Origin: Dehalococcoidia bacterium
GTDB lineage: Bacteria; Chloroflexota; Dehalococcoidia; JAZGDP01
Assembly: GCA_036477885.1 (NCBI GenBank)
Contig: JAZGDP010000093.1
Span: 1 to 27,079 of the forward strand
Length of the DNA: 27,079 bases
Reading direction: 5' to 3'
How positions within the stretch are numbered: the first letter of the stretch is position 1; the number at the start of each line of letters is the position of its first letter. The notes under the pieces are model-generated. The model did no database searches. It worked only from the letters and a program-made list of their open reading frames with translations, and was not told the DNA's origin. Positions 7,458-15,144 of the stretch are shown one piece after another. A program made the position numbers and the translations under genes.

Positions 7458-8708
7458 CTACTCCAGCAGACGCCAATCAAAGGGGGCCTGGGTGATGACT
7501 TCAGGGCCATTGGCAGTGATGAGTACCGCCTCTCCCAGTTTCACTCCTTCCCTGGCCCCTTCCCTACCTGCGTAGGCCTCTACACACATAACCATATCCT
7601 CCTCCAGTTGACCCTCGTAGTTCCCCATACCACTCCAGCTTCTGTCGGTAAAGTAGATGGCTGGCCACTCATCACGCATGCCCAGCCCGTGACCTAGAAC
7701 TGCGTAGCGGTTAGCTTTATACTCTTCGGGCCAAGGAGGTGACTTTTCCGCTATCTCCTGGAGGGTCATGCCTGGCCGGAATAATGGTATCGACTCATAG
7801 ATGATGTCGTAGGCGAGCTTGTAGGCCTCCTTCTGTTCAGAGTTAGGTCTATCACCACATAAATATGTCCTGGACATGCAAACGAAATACCCCATCGGCC
7901 CCGCCATATCGGTATCGAAGCCCACCAGGTCTCCCGTCCTAACGATGCGATCCGAGGCTTCCCGGTACCAGGGATTGGTGTTGCCGCCGGCGGCTAAAAA
8001 TTTAGAGTCCTGGTGTTCCCCGCCGAAACGTAGATTGGTGCTGGCAAGGATGGCATAGAGTTCATTTTCAGTTACTCCGGGACGAAGGGCCTCCCTGACA
8101 GCACAGCACGCCACGTCTGCTATAGCACACGTCTGCCGCATCAGGGCTATCTCATCCTTAGTTTTGACGGCATGGGCATGCTCCAGTACCGATTGTCCGT
8201 CCACAAACTTGATGTCCTGCTCGAGCAGTGCGTGGGCGGTGAGGGCCTCGAGGCGATCCACCCCCAATGGCTCATTAACTATACCCATCTCTTCCAGGGC
8301 CACCTTTAACTCCATTCCCCACCTTTGAGCTACCTCTTCATTGAAGGTGCCGGACACGAAGTAGTTACACGACTGGGCTGGCCTTAGCTTGATCCCTTCC
8401 AAGTCCTTCAGATGCTGATCTCCCTGATTCAGATCAGTAAAGAGAACCACATCCCCCTCTCTGGGCACCACGCAGTAACGATGTGCAGTATGCATGGAGA
8501 AAATCTGGACAAATCGAGTTCCGGTAGCGTAGCGCACGTTTATTGGATCGTATAGAAGGACACCTCCCAGGTCCCGTTTGGCTAGCTCCGCTTGTATACG
8601 CGCTATCCGCTCTCGCCGTAACCGGCGTATATCCACTCGCTCATCGTAGTCCACCGCCTGCTGGCCTATGAGGTCTCGTTGATGGATCTCCTTGACTCCC
8701 TTAAACAT
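7458..8708 (-). CDS. M24 (pita-bread fold) protein, DddP/Xaa-Pro peptidase-like
   Basis: YDPINVRYATG, NPWYRE, FDTDM, HGLGMRDEWP and CVEA. Start placed at ATG 8708 after AAGGAGG. Confidence 0.85.
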   Translation of the reverse strand: MFKGVKEIHQRDLIGQQAVDYDERVDIRRLRRERIARIQAELAKRDLGGVLLYDPINVRYATGTRFVQIFSMHTAHRYCVVPREGDVVLFTDLNQGDQHLKDLEGIKLRPAQSCNYFVSGTFNEEVAQRWGMELKVALEEMGIVNEPLGVDRLEALTAHALLEQDIKFVDGQSVLEHAHAVKTKDEIALMRQTCAIADVACCAVREALRPGVTENELYAILASTNLRFGGEHQDSKFLAAGGNTNPWYREASDRIVRTGDLVGFDTDMAGPMGYFVCMSRTYLCGDRPNSEQKEAYKLAYDIIYESIPLFRPGMTLQEIAEKSPPWPEEYKANRYAVLGHGLGMRDEWPAIYFTDRSWSGMGNYEGQLEEDMVMCVEAYAGREGAREGVKLGEAVLITANGPEVITQAPFDWRLLE

Positions 8709-8771
8709 GGGCCCCTCCTTCCTGGACAACCTCGTAAGTAAACCCGAGATTGTCTTATAGATTTACCCTGC

Positions 8772-9668
8772 CTAGGAAAAGATATCCCCGTACTTGATCC
8801 AATAATAGGCTATATAGGCCCCTGCTCCCACCAAGAACAGGGCGCTTATAGTGTGGACATGGGGCATCAAACCCTTGAGAGAGCGGGCCACCGCCCCTCG
8901 GAACAGGGCCGCTCCTACGGTAACGGCGATTAAGATAACCCCCATCCCCATGGAGTAGCTGATAAACTGAGCGAAGGAGTCGGCGAGCCCCTGGGTGGCA
9001 ATGGCGCTACCGACCACCACGAGAAAGATGGGTAAAGTGCAGCTCAGGGAGCCCACTGCATACGCTATGCCAAAGAGGAATACGTTGCGCAGGTTGCGCT
9101 GGGGGGTAATTGTCACCCGGCTGGCCGCCATGATACCCAAGGGTTTGTGAGTAGCAAACAGCCACAAACCCACCAGGGCCATAGCTATCCCTATGATAAG
9201 CCCTCCGATGGGGAAGGCACTAATTAGCCAGTTGCCCCCCAGGGAGATGATATATCCCACCAGGGAGAAAATGGCGATAAACCCTGTCGTGGCCACTAAG
9301 GCCAGAACAAGGGCACGGAAGAGACGAACAGGAGCTGGCGACTGGTAGAATCCCTCCTCCTGGGTGCCGAGATTATAGGCTACATAGGAAGGGAGCATGA
9401 AGAAGCCGCAGGGATTAACGCTGGCCACCATGCCGGCGCCGAAAGCGTAGCCGAAAGGCAAAGCCTCGGAGAGGCTAGCGAGGCCTCCCTCGGCGTCGCT
9501 GCGCACCGAAAGCAGGGCCGCCATGGCCGCCACTACCCCGCCGATGACGGCAATGAAAATACCCAGCCTGATGACTGACTGCTTTCGCGATACCCCGTTT
9601 AACGGTGAGCCTTGAATGGAAGCGCCCTCTCTACTATTGCCCTTGGCTATTCTGAAAGCCAGTTTCAT
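8772..9668 (-). CDS. ccdA: Cytochrome c biogenesis CcdA / DsbD-beta family membrane electron transporter
   Basis: Multiple hydrophobic helices; the two redox Cys lie in VNPCGFFMLPSY and SLSCTLPIF. Confidence 0.85.
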   Translation of the reverse strand: MKLAFRIAKGNSREGASIQGSPLNGVSRKQSVIRLGIFIAVIGGVVAAMAALLSVRSDAEGGLASLSEALPFGYAFGAGMVASVNPCGFFMLPSYVAYNLGTQEEGFYQSPAPVRLFRALVLALVATTGFIAIFSLVGYIISLGGNWLISAFPIGGLIIGIAMALVGLWLFATHKPLGIMAASRVTITPQRNLRNVFLFGIAYAVGSLSCTLPIFLVVVGSAIATQGLADSFAQFISYSMGMGVILIAVTVGAALFRGAVARSLKGLMPHVHTISALFLVGAGAYIAYYWIKYGDIFS

Positions 9669-9701
9669 CTTGCGCCCTGACAGTTGGGATTATTAAGTCC
9701 C

Positions 9702-10370
9702 TTATTCTTCGCTTACCGTTCCCAGGGCCTCAAGGAGCCTCTCCTCGATCTCCTTTTCCCCCATTTTCCCAATTCGCTTGTCCCGAATTATCCCATCTCG
9801 ATCGAGGAAATAAGTGGTAGGAAGAGCAGTAAGAGAGTAAGCCCGGGATACCAAGGCCTCCCCATCCAGCAACACAGTGTAACTCATGCCTGTTCTAGCT
9901 ACATAACGTGCTACAGGCTCCCGATTCTCCAGCAAGTCGACCCCTAAGAACTCCACGCCCTGGCTGTTGTATTTCTGGTACACCGCCTCCAGGTCAGGGA
10001 TCTCCGCCCTACATGGAGGGCACCAGGTGGCCCAGAAGTTGATGACCACCGCCTTTCCTCGGAGGTCGGCCAGGGAGACCTCATTTCCCTCTAGGTCGCT
10101 AAGGGTAAAGAGGGGTGCGGGAAAACCCACCTTTGGAGCGGGTGACAGCTCCCCCTCCAATGTTATGTTCACCGCTCCGGTAGCGCTAAGGTCACCACCT
10201 CGGATGTCCCCAGCGCTAGGAGTTACCAAAGAGTTATCTGAACTCCGGCTAACGATGATAGCCCAACTTACAAGGGCGATGAAACCCAAAAGACCCGTTA
10301 CAGCTAATATTGTAGGCCATCGCCTAAAGAAAGGGTCTTTTATTTTCTCTACATGGGTTGGGTTATCCAT
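9702..10370 (-). CDS. Membrane-anchored TlpA/ResA thiol-disulfide oxidoreductase
   Basis: N-terminal TM helix, NFWATWCPPC and ALPTTYFLDRDG. Confidence 0.92.
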   Translation of the reverse strand: MDNPTHVEKIKDPFFRRWPTILAVTGLLGFIALVSWAIIVSRSSDNSLVTPSAGDIRGGDLSATGAVNITLEGELSPAPKVGFPAPLFTLSDLEGNEVSLADLRGKAVVINFWATWCPPCRAEIPDLEAVYQKYNSQGVEFLGVDLLENREPVARYVARTGMSYTVLLDGEALVSRAYSLTALPTTYFLDRDGIIRDKRIGKMGEKEIEERLLEALGTVSEE

Positions 10371-10438
10371 GCTTTACCCTTGATTCGGCTCCCCCCTACT
10401 TTCCCTAAGCATTGCAAGCGGATTACTAGTATATCTTA

Positions 10439-10990
10439 TCACAAAACTCTCTCTACTTCCCTCTTCAGGGTGTCGTAGGAAGTAGCCCCATTGTCGCGAT
10501 ACACAATCTTTCCCTCTCTGTCTATTATGACCGTTGTGCCGAGGGCAGTTATGTTATACGTCTTGGTAACAAATCCGTTGGTGTCCTGGCCCCAGATGAC
10601 CTCCCCTGCGTCCACACTATTCCAGAAAACCTTCCAGGTCGATAGCGAGTAAGAGGGAAGTAAGTTGATGGCCACCACCTGCACCCCTTTATCGGCGAAC
10701 TCGGCATGAATCCTGCCCAGCGCTGGAGCCTCCAGCGCACAGGTGGGTCAACCAGGGAAGGAGAAGTATAACACCGTGACCTTCCCTAGCTGCTGGGCCA
10801 ATTGAAAGTCTCCGTTTAAGGTTGGTACTGTGAAATCGGACGCCAGGGGTCCACGGGGTTTCTCAATAGAGATATCGTTGCCTTCCCCAGAGGTTAGCTG
10901 CCAAGTGGCAACAGCGGCAATCACAGCCATCAATATCAACAGCGACCCAGCAGATAAAAACAGGAGGCTCTTTCTCCCTTGAATCGTCAC
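10439..10990 (-). CDS. Membrane-anchored TlpA/redoxin-family selenoprotein (U-P-T-C), 183 aa
   Basis: ORFs 10748-10990 and 10439-10684 are in one frame joined by TGA at 10748-10750, reading LYFSFPG-U-PTCALEAPAL. The TGA sits at the first position of the redoxin CxxC and is followed by a hairpin. Confidence 0.85.
10720..10738 (-). promoter_or_regulatory. Candidate bacterial SECIS element
   Basis: GCGCTGGA-GGC-TCCAGCGC is a perfect 8-bp stem whose loop starts 18 nt after the TGA; a lower stem CCTG/CAGG is possible. Confidence 0.7.
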
Positions 10991-10999
10991 TCCTACCCC

Positions 11000-11494
11000 C
11001 TATTCAGCCGTTATTCCACCGAGAAGTGCCCCGGCGCCGTGGAAATTCTTTCCCCCTTCCATCATCAAGGCCTGAAACTCGGTGTATTGGAAGGGGGTGG
11101 ATTCATCGCCCTGATCGGGCAGGAGTAAAGAGGCCGCTGATATATACCTCATTATAGCTATCTTAAAGGACTCATGAGCCTCGGTCACCTCAGAAGGCAC
11201 CGGTTCCAACCCCTCAACCCTTTCCAGTTGCTTCTCCAAGTCCTTGAGGACTAGGCGGGTATCTGCCTCAAACTCCGAGCTTAACCGATCGTCCTGACTG
11301 ATAGACACAGCCAGAAAACCGAGGATGCGAGTATCGTTCACCAGGCTTAGGGTGACCTGGTTGAATACATCTATGTACTGGTCTGTGGAGACCCTAGGTG
11401 TGATCGGGGTGGGGGTGGCTTCAGTAGCCCTATTAAGACACGCCGCAGCTATAAGAGACACAGCCACAACTAAAAGCAAAAGGCCCTTCATCAT
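11000..11494 (-). CDS. Hypothetical lipoprotein
   Basis: Basic N-terminus, hydrophobic core, IAAA-C lipobox, then a Thr/Pro-rich linker (TEATPTPITP). Confidence 0.7.
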   Translation of the reverse strand: MMKGLLLLVVAVSLIAAACLNRATEATPTPITPRVSTDQYIDVFNQVTLSLVNDTRILGFLAVSISQDDRLSSEFEADTRLVLKDLEKQLERVEGLEPVPSEVTEAHESFKIAIMRYISAASLLLPDQGDESTPFQYTEFQALMMEGGKNFHGAGALLGGITAE

Positions 11495-11529
11495 TCCCCT
11501 GCAAAAGTGTTTAATACGCCTGACAGAAA

Positions 11530-11691
11530 TTAGCCCTCGTCTTCTCGGCCCCCGCTTTTCAGTTGCCCCTCTATGACTTCCCTTGGCTCAGGGAGTTCCT
11601 CTTTCTCTCCACCTTTGAACCTCTTGGCCAGGAAAACTATACCGAGAACTGGCGCAAGACAACATGCAGCCACCAATAAGATAAATGGCAT
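11530..11691 (-). CDS. 53-aa single-TM microprotein with vicinal Cys-Cys (MerT/MerF-like motif)
   Basis: MPFILLVAACCLAPVLGIVFLAKRFKGGEKEELPEPREVIEGQLKSGGREDEG; SD AAGGGG upstream; starts 18 bp after the merA stop; below the length of any ORF in the track. Confidence 0.7.
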   Translation of the reverse strand: MPFILLVAACCLAPVLGIVFLAKRFKGGEKEELPEPREVIEGQLKSGGREDEG

Positions 11692-11709
11692 TGGAATACC
11701 CCTTTCTAG

Positions 11710-13146
11710 CTATTCTATGCAACAGGTCATCACCGAGATATCTCGGGTGAAGGCCTGGGCCGCCAGCTTTATCCCCTCGCTCAGGGTGGGATAGACGTGC
11801 ACCGTATCTATGATGTCGTCAACTGTTAGCTTGAATTTCACCGCTAATGTGGCCTCGTGGATGAGGTCGGCGGCGTGGGGAGCTACTATGTGCATCCCCA
11901 GGATCTGCGAGCTCTGGGGGTGGATCACCATCTTTATCACCCCTCGAGTCTCACCAATAACCATGGCCTTAGGGACTCTGGACACAGGCACTACACGACA
12001 GGCGCAGGCGTTGAAGCGCCGCATCTCCTCCTCCTCGGTTATGCCCACGCTAGCCACCTGGGGGTTGGTGAAGACGGCGTGGGGCACCTCGTCATAGTTA
12101 ATGGACCGCTCTGAACCGGCTAAGGCGTTCTCGGCCGCAAGCGCGCCCTCCTTGGCGGCGACGGTCTCCAGCAAGGCATTCCCCACACAATCCCCGGCGG
12201 CGTAGATATCAGGGGTGTCGGTCTGATAGTATTGGTCTACCTTGATGAACCCACCCTTATGGGTCTGTACACCCGATTTATCCAGGGCCAAGTCTTCGGT
12301 GTTGGCCTTGACCCCGGCGGCCAGGAGTAGCTCCTGGGCCTTCAACACCTCCTCATCGGTGCCGAAGGAGTGCTTTCTCAGGCCAGGCTGGCTTTTGCGG
12401 ATGGACACCACCTTCTCCTTGCCCTCTTGGGCGACTCTTTTCAACGTCACCCCGACTCGGAAGGAGATGCCCTCCTCTTCCAGGCAACGCTGTAGCTCCT
12501 GGGCCACCTCCGGCTCCTCTCTGGGCAATATCTGGTCCATGGCCTCCAGCACGGTGACCCTGGTGCCGAAGTGGGCGAACATCTGGGCGAACTCCAAGCC
12601 TAGGGGCCCCGCACCGATGACTATCATGGACTCTGGCAGCTCCTGGAGCTCCATGGCAGTAACATTGCTCAGCCAGGAGATGGTGTCCATCCCCGGGATA
12701 GGAAGGGGCTTGGTGGAGGAGCCGGTGGCGATGAGGAGCTTTTCTCCCTCATAGGTCTGCCCATCGACATCGACCTGGGTAGGCGAGACGAACTTAGCGC
12801 GGCCGTCGAGATAGGTAACCTCCTTCAGGCCCTCCACCACGTTTATGTAGTTGCTCTGCCGTGCCGTGGCAACCAACTCATCCTTCTGCTGGATAGCCAC
12901 TGCGAAGTCAAATCTAGGTCTGTGGCCGTTAGCCAGGGCCTTGAACCGGGGCGGGTCGGGGTAGAATAGCTCGTCGCCTACCGTAAGAAGATGCTTGCTG
13001 GGCATACAGCCCACGTTGACGCACGTGCCACCAATAGGAAGTCCACTATTGATCATTAGGGCCGACTTTCCCAGGTCCGATGCCTTGGTAGCGGCAGCGA
13101 AGGCCGCCGCCCCACCACCCACAATAACAAGATCGAATTTATCCAT
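11710..13146 (-). CDS. merA: Mercuric reductase-like flavoprotein disulfide reductase without an N-terminal NmerA domain
   Basis: [27 protein letters not shown] and C-terminal [19 protein letters not shown]. Start placed at ATG 13146 after GGGAGG. Confidence 0.85.
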
Positions 13147-13261
13147 TACTTCTTTACCTCCCAAGATTAGTTTGATTTGCTGTCGAAAAATCCCTTATAA
13201 TCCCACACCTCGAAAGCCCTAGCCGCAGCAACCTGAGTTCAAATGCCTGTACAGGGTTTCA

Positions 13262-13807
13262 TTAGCCTAGCAACGGCTTTAATTCCTCCACCAGCTTCTC
13301 CCCCGAGAACACTACCGGATACCCCCACCCCACCAAAGGCTCGGGGACCTTATCCCATTTAGCCTGGCCTCCAAAGAGCAAATAGACATCCCAAATCACC
13401 TCATCTTGGAATGGCCTACCTAAGAACTGCTCCACCTCCTCAGAGGAGCCAGCAAATTTAGCAGCGTCACCCTCCCTCCAGGAGGGAAGGACCTTCTCCT
13501 TGAACCATCGTGCCAACTCCCGTTTCCCATCCCAGAAGTGGGAAACTCGAGGGTCGTCCAGAAGCTTCTGGGCCTCGGGCACCTTTTCCCGGGAATCGCC
13601 GGGCATCATAGGCAGCCAAACCGTATAAACGGAGAGCTTGGAGCGGCTGTTCTCTCCCAGGACCTTCTCCTGCACCCAACGGGCGCCGTCAGCACAGTAA
13701 CCTCAAGTTGGAGATAGGAAAAGGAGGAGACGCGGTACGCCGCGGTCGTCGTTAAAGCGAGCCTTCAAGGTATCGTGGGCAGCCTGCTGGACTAAATCAT
13801 CTTCCAT
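13262..13807 (-). CDS. Cytoplasmic thioredoxin-like selenoprotein (U-G-Y-C), 181 aa
   Basis: Frame is open from ATG 13807: MEDDLVQQAAHDTLKARFNDDRGVPRLLLFLSPT-U(TGA 13703-13705)-GYCADGARWVQEKV, continuing into track ORF 13262-13675. Confidence 0.82.
13670..13697 (-). promoter_or_regulatory. Candidate bacterial SECIS element
   Basis: CTGTGCT-GACGG-CGC-CCGTT-G-GGTGCAG hairpin including G-U pairs; the loop starts 18 nt after the TGA. Confidence 0.6.
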
Positions 13808-13834
13808 GTTGCACCCAAATAAGAAGTAAGGATT

Positions 13835-14152
13835 CTACTTGATTATCTGACAAGCTAGGACCCGCTCGGCGTTGTCTGCGAGAATCTGCTGTCCCAGCTC
13901 CAATATGTCCTTCACCCTCGGGTCGGCTATGGTGTAGTAGACGTTTTTACCCTCCCGATAGGAAACGACATATCCGCACCATCGCAGGCATGCCAGGTGG
14001 CTGGAGACCCTTCCCTGGGGCGAACCCAGCAGCTCCACTAACTCACCAACGTTCTTGTCGCCCTCCAGAAGGAGCTGAAGGATTTTTACCCTGGTGGGGT
14101 CGCCCAGGCCTCGGAAGAATTTAGCGGTAACCCCTGCGGTAGTAGGGACCAA
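13835..14152 (-). CDS. ArsR/SmtB family metal-sensing repressor, CmtR-like
   Basis: FFRGLGDPTRVKIL, SSHLACLRWCGYV and C-terminal LACQ. The start codon is uncertain. Confidence 0.9.
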   Translation of the reverse strand: MVPTTAGVTAKFFRGLGDPTRVKILQLLLEGDKNVGELVELLGSPQGRVSSHLACLRWCGYVVSYREGKNVYYTIADPRVKDILELGQQILADNAERVLACQIIK

Positions 14153-14182
14153 TTGAGGTACTGTATGAGTTTGCTGCGTGCT

Positions 14183-14210
14183 ATATACTCCTATACGTTT
14201 ATAAGTATAT
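14183..14210. promoter_or_regulatory. Candidate ArsR operator, imperfect 14-14 palindrome
   Basis: ATATACTCCTATAC|GTTTATAAGTATAT, 11 of 14 positions complementary; overlaps the -10 box and probable start site. Confidence 0.65.
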
Positions 14211-14235
14211 TAACGCTGGAACTCCTTTTTGTCAA
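14207..14235 (-). promoter_or_regulatory. sigma70-type promoter of the arsR-merA operon
   Basis: TTGACA (14235-14230)-17 bp-TAATAT (14212-14207). Confidence 0.75.
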
Positions 14236-14367
14236 GCACTATTTAACGGCCACAAACGAAAAGGGTGCCAGTGGGTTAAAAGAGGTTAGAGAAACTCGAG
14301 GAGTAACGCTAACGATTCCTTCACCCCCTCCACTGAGGAGCTAAATGGCTTAAAGGGGTAACTGTGC

Positions 14368-14396
14368 TTGACATACAGAGTCAAAGATGATAAGTT
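14368..14396 (+). promoter_or_regulatory. sigma70-type promoter of the ribosomal superoperon
   Basis: TTGACA-17 bp-TAAGTT with an extended -10 TG. Confidence 0.7.
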
Positions 14397-14498
14397 TAAA
14401 CTTTGGTATCTATATAGATATCAAATGCAGCGTGGCAAGATGTCTGTTACCCTATTTGAATGTTACAAAGAGAAGGGTAGCCTTGAGGGAGTTGGGAT

Positions 14499-14927
14499 AT
14501 GCCCACTATAAACCAATTGATTCGCAAGGGGCGTAAGAGGTCTACAAAAAAGACCAAGGCGCCAGCCTTAAGGTTCTCCTATAATGCGTTAAAGAACCGG
14601 ATGGTGCGGGGTAAAGGCTCACCCCAAAAAAGAGGGGTTTGCATTCAAGTGAGGACGGTTACCCCTAAAAAACCCAACTCTGCTCTCCGTAAAGTTGCCC
14701 GGGTAAGGCTTACCAACGGCATGGAGGTCATAGCCTATATACCGGGGGAGGGCCACACCCTTCAGGAACACTCGGTGGTGCTTATTCGAGGCGGCCGCGT
14801 CCCCGATCTACCGGGGGTGCGATATCATATAGTCCGCGGGGCCTTGGATGCCACGGGTGTAGACAACCGACATAAAGGCCGCAGCAAGTATGGGACCAAG
14901 AAGGTCAAGTCCATAGGAGGAGGGTAG
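14499..14927 (+). CDS. rpsL: 30S ribosomal protein S12
   Basis: [18 protein letters not shown] and DLPGVRYH. Confidence 0.98.
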
Positions 14928-15144
14928 GTTCAAAGGCCTCTACCTACATATGAATTATGAGTAAGGAGACCTAAGACCTGCCCTTCCAGGTGCCATCAGG
15001 GTCGCTAGGGCCAAACAATCTTCCCAGTCTAAAGTCAGCATTGCGGATGGCCTAGGGTGTTGGTGTGGGGAAAGGCAAGACTGAGGGAGACTTTCCACGG
15101 GAATTCATGAGTTTTAAGTATGTGTTGTCTAAGGGGAGCGGATA
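14928..15144 (+). ncRNA. Putative structured intercistronic RNA between rpsL and rpsG
   Basis: 217-nt spacer with several complementary segments, e.g. 15019-15030 with 15078-15090. Confidence 0.35.

Follow-up and report, generated by a model that had tools for sequence, protein, structure and literature searches.

Contig JAZGDP010000093.1 of the Dehalococcoidia bacterium assembly GCA_036477885.1 (27,079 nucleotides (nt), referred to below as the window) carries on its minus strand, between positions 8772 and 14235, eight closely spaced genes that probably constitute a mercury(II) resistance (mer) operon of the Gram-positive/Chloroflexota type, for which a mechanism of capture, transfer and reduction of Hg(II) is proposed. 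The cluster combines an ArsR-type regulator and a mercuric reductase (MerA) with two redox proteins, P0001 and P0002, which almost certainly contain selenocysteine (Sec), and with a TlpA-like redoxin, a CcdA-like membrane protein, a lipoprotein and a short membrane peptide that has a vicinal Cys pair (CC peptide).

Organization of the cluster

Listed from the promoter side, the features are the following:
14207..14235, minus strand: predicted sigma-70-like promoter, TTGACA-17-TAATAT, a consensus match only (10 of 12 positions)
14183..14210, no strand assigned: candidate ArsR operator, an imperfect palindrome with 14-nt arms that are 79% complementary, overlapping the -10 box
13835..14152, minus strand: arsR, ArsR/SmtB-family metalloregulator with a Cys triad
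13262..13807, minus strand: P0001, signal-less UxxC thioredoxin-fold selenoprotein of 181 aa, with ATG at 13807 and the TGA read through
13703..13705, minus strand: TGA codon for Sec in P0001, U35 (SPTUGYC), supported by conserved TGA and alignment with Cys
13672..13686, minus strand: hairpin of P0001 resembling a selenocysteine insertion sequence (SECIS), with a 5-6 bp stem and GUU loop, starting 16 nt past the UGA
11710..13164, minus strand: merA, core only, above the TIGR02053 cut-off
11530..11691, minus strand: 53-aa CC membrane peptide, a single helix with VAACCLAP, no family model
11000..11494, minus strand: lipoprotein with lipobox LIAAAC, no family match
10439..10990, minus strand: P0002, membrane-anchored Sec redoxin of 183 aa (FSFPGUPTC), Pfam Redoxin and AhpC-TSA, TGA read through
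10748..10750, minus strand: TGA codon for Sec in P0002, U81 (FPGUPTC), aligned with Cys of homologues
10720..10738, minus strand: SECIS-like hairpin of P0002, with an 8-bp stem and GGC loop, starting 9 nt past the UGA
9702..10370, minus strand: TlpA/ResA-like thiol-disulfide oxidoreductase (WCPPC), membrane-anchored, 222 aa, AhpC-TSA and Redoxin
8772..9668, minus strand: CcdA-like membrane protein, with an extra N-terminal helix and a core of six transmembrane (TM) helices, Cys87 and Cys210

The genes form the single minus-strand run that had been proposed in an earlier reading of this DNA, here called the original prediction, and lie at the places given there. From arsR to ccdA they are separated by 27, 97, 18, 35, 9, 68 and 33 bp, all below 100 bp when the TTG at 13164 is taken as the start of merA; the gap between P0001 and merA is 115 bp rather than 97 bp if the ATG at 13146 is the start. 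No convincing terminator was found between the eight genes (8772-14235), and they are probably one transcription unit. As had also been stated, merR, merT, merP and merB are all absent from the cluster, and no match to MerT occurs anywhere in the genome, which is 1.67 Mb long and 78% complete.

Selenocysteine decoding of two in-frame TGA codons

The TGA codons of P0001 and P0002 are both almost certainly Sec codons because the Sec machinery is present in the host, the codons align with TGA or Cys in homologues, and each is followed by a conserved hairpin in which compensatory changes occur. The genes selA (577 bits), selB (359), selD (375) and tRNA-Sec (61.7) were all found above their cut-offs, and the host selD gene itself carries one in-frame TGA.

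Six-frame translations of 400 genomes from the phylum were searched, and P0001 homologues were detected in 17. Among 15 six-frame matches, 12-13 contain a single TGA, which falls on the codon of U35, and Cys occupies that position in one (G054). Furthermore, when 185,579 species genomes were scanned with a DNA pattern for the P0001 family, 80 loci were returned, and the frame ...PRLILLLSPT-TGA-PxCxxGA(R/S)WVQ... is present in 76 of them, which belong to Actinomycetota, Chloroflexota, Acidobacteriota, Latescibacterota, Gemmatimonadota and Dormibacterota. The scan pattern includes SECIS-constrained codons and is thus biased to Sec forms, so that 76 TGA loci versus 1-2 with Cys do not give the ratio of Sec to Cys in the family. 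Cys occupies the position equivalent to U35 in P0005, L058 and P0136-P0140.

The hairpin of the P0001 family consists of the 15 nt that code for G-A-(R/S)-W-V (columns 20-34). Pair 21-33, formed by the third positions of the Gly and Val codons, is CG in 57 sequences, GC in 14, UA in three, UG in three and unpaired in two (n = 79); the Ala codon always ends in C (79/79), G26 of the apical loop is invariant, and the Arg/Ser alternation corresponds to CGU/CGG versus AGU. The covariation score of the hairpin, 0.132, exceeds that of every slid register and compares with 0.035 ± 0.009 after shuffling, none of 500 shuffles reaching it. Columns 19, 20, 22, 23 and 28-32 were fixed by the scan pattern, and the hairpin signal derives from the free columns 21, 24-27, 33 and 34. 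At the RNA level, the SECIS explains the invariant GA(R/S)WV motif of the family. An Rfam scan of positions 8000-15000 at E ≤ 5 detected no SECIS or other family, bacterial SECIS being poorly covered in that database.

In P0002, the position of U81 is taken in Cys homologues by the leading Cys of CPTC, CPSC, CGEC or CSTC, and TGA stands there in four other Chloroflexota sequences, including L254. The hairpin of P0002 is identical in L192 and L242, and L193 has a compensatory change from C-G to G-C. Two independent assemblies, L260 and L261, which share 94-97% nucleotide identity over the P0002 gene, keep both the TGA and the hairpin. In the Sec redoxin of L261 (L261:1611-2164), the SECIS stem has a single mismatch (CCAGAGC for CCAGCGC), which may reflect natural variation or an assembly error.

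Gene callers report only fragments of the two genes, as the original prediction had anticipated for the selenoproteins, and folding of the single sequence by itself gives a weak hairpin behind the first UGA (z = +1.05). These two observations would suit the opposite reading, namely that the TGAs are real stops in split or decaying genes, or assembly errors, and that there are no selenoproteins. This reading is hardly credible, however, as dozens of genomes from several phyla have TGA at this active-site codon and an open frame before and after it, wobble-position covariation backs the downstream hairpin, the TGA is kept in independent assemblies, Cys homologues align at the same position, and the host has a complete Sec machinery. 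The earlier assignment of both UxxC proteins as selenoproteins was thus borne out, and the host is Sec-competent.

The mercuric reductase

Judged by its sequence, the merA product is a bona fide MerA equivalog. It scores 520.6 bits against TIGR02053, whose equivalog cut-off is 454.45, and falls far below the cut-offs of RclA (251 versus 740), hypothiocyanite (HOSCN) reductase (246 versus 650) and also lipoamide dehydrogenase. The best matches in the PDB are the mercuric reductases 5x1y and 4ywo. The features by which MerA is recognized are a redox-active CxxxxC, a C-terminal vicinal Cys pair and the signature Tyr residues 264 and 605 in the Bacillus numbering (PMC3466566). When the protein is aligned to 5x1y, four elements find their equivalents, namely GGTCVNVGC, a Tyr in NYINVV, a Tyr in VYPTL and MTCC at the C-terminus; residue numbers 264 and 605 were placed on the alignment columns by our own arithmetic.

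The protein consists of the core only and lacks an NmerA domain. The relatives nearest to it, with identities of up to 75%, are annotated as mercury(II) reductase of Dehalococcoidia/Chloroflexi metagenome-assembled genomes (MAGs), and MerA of the same clade occurs in 24 others among 400 genomes of the class. The C-terminus had been described as atypical, but it is typical of the clade: CC ends 27/27 genuine MerA sequences examined, mostly followed by V/I and E/D.

The ArsR-type regulator

The arsR product matches the generic ArsR/SmtB model NF033788 with 84 bits (cut-off 55), and against the CmtR equivalog NF047906 it reaches 68.3 bits, below the cut-off of 150. Thus, of the former label "CmtR-type", the Cys triad can be retained and the family membership cannot. 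The triad comprises C-x3-C in helix 4 and a C-terminal Cys, a layout common to CmtR, and this arrangement (HLxC-x3-C ... C-terminal Cys) is invariant in 19/19 aligned ArsR sequences.

Relatives of this regulator that are 45-63% identical adjoin merA or modules of P0001-like and CcdA-like genes in 18 other loci. In most of the 18, this ArsR subtype neighbors merA or merB; two of them (L102 and L113) have merB and no merA, and the few remaining loci have the P0001-like module without mer genes. When 20 loci of the class and three metagenome loci of the same MerA clade were considered, the regulator near merA was ArsR in 10 and MerR in 10. ArsR-type repressors of mer are experimentally established in Streptomyces lividans and Sulfolobus solfataricus, and regulators of this type are found in 8% of mer operons (PMC3466566).

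P0001 and the SPT(U/C)xxC family

The AlphaFold2 model of P0001 (predicted local distance difference test (pLDDT) 88.9) has a thioredoxin fold, and its top Foldseek match is ResA (1su9, E = 3e-5); the nearest folds are ResA, Mycobacterium DsbE/DsbF, TlpA, Sco and GPx. The family to which P0001 belongs is named here SPT(U/C)xxC after its active site, SPTU and SPTC denoting the Sec and Cys forms. No Pfam or NCBIfam model matched through the SPT(U/C)xxC domain in 15 members and ten further representatives. In particular, NF053656, a "TUGYCR motif thioredoxin fold (seleno)protein" model with a cut-off of 100 bits, did not match P0001 even at E ≤ 10, and its match to P0002 (21 bits) lies below that cut-off. 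P0001 also had no match among plasmid records.

A profile search of 1.84 billion cluster representatives (50% identity) produced 3,555 matches at E ≤ 1e-3 and 1,522 at E ≤ 1e-10. This ruled out a tiny family, which had been considered after a word-index homologue search gave three matches for P0001. The matches are mostly full-length Cys forms (SPTCxxC), and among the best 150 about 14 comprise just the C-terminal part, which is what truncation at a Sec codon would leave.

Nearly all members of the family have a signal peptide, a lipobox or a membrane anchor. P0001 has none, and its start coincides exactly with the point where the mature domain of its relatives begins; P0001 is therefore a cytoplasmic derivative. 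A few Cys forms (L056-L058 and P0005) are signal-less as well. The description "cytoplasmic UxxC protein" in the original prediction accordingly fits the copy in the window, but this copy is the exception in a family that is mostly extracytoplasmic.

Twelve neighbor clusters were surveyed within 8 kb of 79 SPTU loci, with these results:
CcdA-like protein, adjacent: 32/79 loci
MerR-family protein: 12/79 loci
CmtR-like ArsR: 9/79 loci
DUF2703/Thioredoxin_3: 9/79 loci (in L026 fused to a MerT-like helix bundle and HMA)
MerA: 8/79 loci
MerB: 5/79 loci
zf_CopZ: 5/79 loci
At least one metal-linked neighbor (MerR, ArsR, MerA, MerB, DUF2703 or zf_CopZ): 25/79 loci
MerA or MerB: 11/79 loci
None of the 12 neighbor clusters: 37/79 loci

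Domain fusions were found in addition to these neighborhoods. P0165 and P0181 join CcdA to SPTC, P0133 and P0176 have the arrangement SPTC-HMA-SPTC-Thioredoxin_3, and in a Thermoanaerobaculia MAG (L104:4379-5521, plus strand) an SPTUxxC domain lies behind a three-helix membrane domain that has Cys-Cys in helix 1.

Two further settings of the family were observed. In Actinomycetota (L064, L107, L110, L138 and L049), DUF3179 proteins recur together with CBS-domain and sigma-factor-like genes beside SPTU/CcdA pairs; DUF3179 is a listed selenoprotein family (PMC13188914). In the Gaiellaceae MAGs L106, L111, L118, L120 and L126, the SPTU gene lies directly downstream of a chlorite-dismutase-family (HemQ-like) gene, and no mer genes occur in these 8-kb loci.

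The CcdA-like protein and the outer redoxins

The name ccdA, given in the original prediction, can be kept for a divergent relative. The single sequence matches Pfam DsbD_TM with E = 0.19, below threshold, and also misses the DsbD_2 threshold, whereas a profile of 18 homologues matches Thermus CcdA (5VKV) with E = 8.7e-7 over profile positions 55-272, and both Cys are aligned. These residues, C87 and C210, are invariant in the homologues, one in each half of the protein (TM1 and TM4). For the AlphaFold model (pLDDT 76), 5VKV is the sole credible fold match in Foldseek (probability 0.99, TM-score 0.40-0.49). The gene is under strong purifying selection, differing from close relatives by 14-19 synonymous and 0-1 nonsynonymous changes. 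By homology, the CcdA-like protein would transfer electrons from thioredoxin to the outer redoxins; it may possibly transport Hg(II) as well.

P0002 matches Pfam Redoxin with 58.9 bits and AhpC-TSA with 54.7 bits, and the 222-aa TlpA-like protein matches AhpC-TSA with 105 bits and Redoxin with 101.4 bits. Both are anchored to the membrane at the N-terminus and have the Redoxin/AhpC-TSA domain with a (U/C)xxC motif, and neither reaches the equivalog cut-offs of ResA, StoA, DsbE and TlpA, the TlpA-like protein scoring 131 bits against a ResA cut-off of 170. Sec forms of P0002 adjoin merA in L192 and L193 and lie about 6 kb from merA in L222/L254; L242 is a further Sec form.

The CC peptide and the lipoprotein

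The reading frame of the 53-aa CC peptide is intact, and its CC helix is invariant in relatives with about 91% nucleotide identity. Single-helix CC peptides are present near merA in six loci (the window, L193, L223, L230, L232 and L233), where gene callers often miss them. The 53-aa peptide gave no match to the PF02411 (MerT) and MerF models at E ≤ 10; it has one helix, versus two or three in those proteins. The lipoprotein has no Pfam or NCBIfam family match; homologues 90-92% identical occur in L260 and L261, and one of 32% identity lies between arsR and merA in L193.

Recurrence of the modules in other genomes

The modules of the cluster, namely arsR, the Sec or Cys redoxin, the CcdA-like protein and the SPTU protein, are linked to merA in other genomes as well, so that the linkage assumed in the original prediction is conserved. 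Four loci exemplify this:
L193: arsR - lipoprotein - HMA(CxxU) - merA - 56-aa CC peptide - Sec redoxin
L192: arsR - merA - 64-aa membrane protein - Sec redoxin
L230: arsR - merA ... Cys redoxin - CcdA-like
L053: arsR - merA - MerF-like - CcdA-like - SPTU lipoprotein

The HMA protein of L193 (L193:6770-6982, plus strand; Pfam HMA, E = 5e-15) has the motif C-D-G-U and is encoded directly upstream of merA, in the slot that P0001 occupies in the window.

One in-frame stop each was seen by tblastn in two matches beside merA, one to MerB (L240:6417-6950, minus strand) and one to the MerR family (L238:6549-6932, plus strand); the stops could mark additional Sec codons or show that the genes are broken.

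Proposed mechanism and its alternatives

In the mechanism proposed for a mer operon, Hg(II) would release the ArsR repressor, and the unit would be derepressed. Outside the membrane, the Sec redoxin P0002 and the TlpA-like protein would capture Hg(II) on selenol/thiol pairs, or would repair envelope thiols that are oxidized or damaged by mercury, and CcdA would keep both redoxins reduced with electrons from the cytoplasm. Hg(II) would then cross the membrane with the aid of the CC peptide and possibly of the CcdA cysteines, the signal-less P0001 would take the role of NmerA by delivering Hg(II) to the paired cysteines at the C-terminus of MerA, and MerA would reduce it with NAD(P)H to volatile Hg(0). 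Of the two mechanisms offered in the original prediction, capture of mercury by the Sec proteins in place of MerP/NmerA is the better fit, given the CxxU HMA protein of L193 and the HMA and MerT-like fusions; the more general expectation of a metal-related system agrees with the MerA equivalog and with the modules linked to merA elsewhere.

The other mechanism is a reductant chain, in which P0001 would donate electrons to CcdA, and through it to the outer Sec redoxin and TlpA, and the Sec proteins would never carry mercury. It draws on the ResA/TlpA-like thioredoxin fold of P0001, on CcdA as an established electron transporter (5VKV), and on the partnership of the SPTU family with CcdA-like proteins, adjacent in 32/79 loci and fused in P0165 and P0181. 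The coexistence of MerT with TlpA and CcdA in S. aureus (see below) also suggests a redox rather than a transport role for the pair. P0001 would have to be reduced by thioredoxin reductase or, in the version of the original prediction, by a MerA-like flavoenzyme that passes on electrons from NADPH. The latter version has no support: MerA is a true equivalog with every feature that marks such enzymes, and nothing in it points to a protein-disulfide substrate or to redoxin reduction. Moreover, the SPTU protein lies outside the membrane in nearly all relatives and is therefore normally an acceptor, not a donor; P0001 adjoins merA and is five genes away from ccdA; its slot in L193 is held by a Sec-HMA protein of the metallochaperone type; and the HMA and MerT-like fusions tie the SPT domain to metal handling. 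On balance, a pure reductant chain is rather unlikely.

It is quite unlikely, too, that the cluster is not mercury-specific and serves instead as an envelope defense of the Scs kind against other thiophilic metals (Cd, Pb, Cu, Ag) or against oxidant and disulfide stress, with the flavoenzyme acting on another substrate. The Cys triad of the regulator is that of the Cd/Pb sensor CmtR (at a sub-threshold 68 bits), many SPTU loci have no mer genes, their neighbors include zf_CopZ, DUF3179 and CBS proteins, and MerA-like flavoenzymes such as RclA and hypothiocyanite reductase do exist. The merA product, however, passes TIGR02053 and fails the models of those two enzymes by a wide margin, and its C-terminal CC and two signature tyrosines are all in place. 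Furthermore, MerB, an enzyme specific to organomercurials, is repeatedly found next to SPTU/CcdA/ArsR modules, and the ArsR subtype of the window accompanies merA or merB in most of its 18 loci.

Several points weigh against the interpretation as a mer operon with the proposed mechanism. Cotranscription follows solely from the short gaps and the absence of a convincing terminator, and the eight-gene order was found only in L260 and L261, which are about 90-98% identical and span only the part from the 3' end of merA to ccdA. That the two Sec proteins, CcdA, the lipoprotein and the CC peptide take part in handling mercury is inferred from their gene context, from domain fusions and from chemistry. 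With 17 bits (positions 6-105 of 116), the L104 fusion matches MerT below the Pfam cut-off, the 37/79 SPTU loci without any surveyed neighbor indicate that the family need not be mercury-specific, and the S. aureus MerT alongside TlpA and CcdA argues that the pair is not simply a mercury importer.

Implications

Selenium binds mercury tighter than sulfur does, and the antagonism between the two elements is a classic theme of toxicology; to our knowledge, the characterized bacterial mer systems rely on cysteine pairs. A MerA operon with two Sec proteins, and with a CxxU HMA protein in relatives, makes the benefit of selenium in the capture and hand-off of mercury testable with defined genes. 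A broader and tentative proposal, which we hold to be possible but doubtful, is that SPT(U/C)xxC proteins and their CcdA-like partners form an unrecognized selenol/thiol route for mercury, equivalent to MerP-MerT-NmerA, in Chloroflexota, Actinomycetota, Acidobacteriota and other soil phyla. Copies that are exported would bind Hg(II) with their Se-S pair and pass it inward via the cysteines of the CcdA-like protein or the CC peptide, and signal-less copies such as P0001 would be selenium-based substitutes of NmerA that feed MerA. If this were true, then, together with the Sec-HMA, Sec-redoxin and double-Sec MerB-like genes (the last described below), some bacteria would run mercury resistance largely on selenium. 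Independent of this proposal, the analysis delivers a large thioredoxin-fold family without a Pfam or NCBIfam model, with a clear CcdA-like partner and a clear Sec/Cys switch, and it draws attention to the TlpA and CcdA genes of the long-known staphylococcal mer operon.

Genomic surroundings

The cluster adjoins the ribosomal genes rpsL-rpsG-fusA. Its composition gives no sign of a foreign island, as the GC content is 0.50-0.60 throughout and the cluster resembles its flanks, and no mobility genes were seen in the list of open reading frames (ORFs) of the window, which is annotated only in part. About 40 bp downstream of ccdA lies an M24-family gene (7458-8729, minus strand), whose best model is the dimethylsulfoniopropionate lyase DddP (271 bits versus a cut-off of 600) and whose metal ligands are altered according to the original prediction. 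It is syntenic with the operon only in the closest relatives (L260) and for this reason is kept outside the system.

Another contig of the same genome carries a MerB-like ORF (C114:3887-4729, plus strand; Pfam MerB 38 bits, above cut-off) with two in-frame TGAs, in the contexts VYAAUALTSLD and SQYUPNIV. Judged by MerB motifs and not by an alignment, their positions resemble those of the two catalytic cysteines; the ORF is a candidate double-Sec organomercurial lyase-like protein.

Comparison with known systems

The nearest counterparts are plasmid-borne. In a search of plasmid records, the CcdA-like protein of the window was 37% identical, at 80% coverage, to the CcdA of 40 Staphylococcus records. 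The gene order in NZ_LR130516.1 is merR - TlpA-family protein - CcdA - merT - merA - merB, and the other S. aureus plasmid matches listed likewise overlap an adjacent TlpA-family gene. The Arthrobacter plasmid pJ340-69 has the order merR - CcdA - TlpA - merA - merB, and a Mycolicibacterium plasmid has ArsR ... TlpA - CcdA and no merA. Like the window, the S. aureus and Arthrobacter mer operons unite a metal-sensing regulator, MerA, a TlpA-like redoxin and CcdA in one cluster. They differ in having MerR, all-Cys proteins, a MerA that bears NmerA (a 1641-nt gene in S. aureus), and MerT and/or MerB, whereas the window has an ArsR-type regulator, a core-only MerA, a Sec redoxin, a Sec protein upstream of merA and the CC peptide in place of MerT. 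A literature search found no published test of the role of TlpA/CcdA in any mer operon; in actinomycete mer clusters, TrxA-like and CcdA-like proteins are labeled "mercury transporter" (Table 4, PMC12195606).

The ArsR-regulated mer operons without NmerA, such as those of Streptomyces lividans and Sulfolobus solfataricus (PMC3466566), resemble the window in that ArsR takes the place of MerR and MerT/MerP are often absent. No selenoproteins are reported in these actinobacterial and archaeal operons (PMC3466566), whereas the window has two and its regulator bears a CmtR-like Cys triad.

With the CcdA plus TlpA/ResA/Etrx, DsbD and ScsB-ScsC/D pathways, the cluster shares a six-TM, two-cysteine transporter and membrane-tethered partners with a thioredoxin fold, and the CcdA-redoxin fusions P0165 and P0181 recall DsbD and ScsB. 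Scs links a reducing pathway of this kind to copper tolerance. In the window, by contrast, the partners include UxxC selenoproteins, and the context is merA, not cytochrome c maturation or Msr.

The resemblance to MerP/NmerA and MerT/MerF is one of functional analogy only, consisting of paired U/CxxC ligands on the outside and the inside of the membrane. The Sec proteins of the window have a thioredoxin fold, MerP and NmerA have a ferredoxin-like HMA fold, and no sequence-family match between them was found. Similarly, the CC peptide (VAACCLAP) is like helix 1 of MerT/MerF in having a vicinal Cys-Cys in a membrane helix, but it has one helix, not two or three.

Among catalogued selenoproteins with UxxC are the "Redoxin family protein" PF08534, the "Prx-like thiol:disulfide oxidoreductase" and the "thiol-disulfide isomerase-like" cd02966, and those linked to mercury comprise a MerT-family protein, an HMA UxxU "putative mercuric reductase", HgcA, the SAO system and MerB-like proteins (PMC13188914; bioRxiv 10.1101/2022.07.06.499078). 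The idea of Sec in heavy-metal handling is thus already in print in these sources. P0002 fits the catalogued Redoxin/AhpC-TSA UxxC class. For the SPT(U/C)xxC family, no entry could be matched in the 2026 selenoprotein inventory by a term search of its UxxC, thioredoxin, redoxin and disulfide entries, and the link of this family to CcdA and mer genes is not described in that inventory.

The earlier statement that no mer operon of this composition had been described therefore went too far, as TlpA and CcdA occur in the S. aureus and Arthrobacter mer plasmids and ArsR-controlled mer operons are known. The overall kind of the cluster, an ArsR-type, NmerA-less mer operon with a TlpA/CcdA module, is known, and the gene content of the redox/transport pair is not new. 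Genuinely new are the SPT(U/C)xxC family with its SECIS, the presence of Sec in two accessory proteins, and the CC micropeptide.

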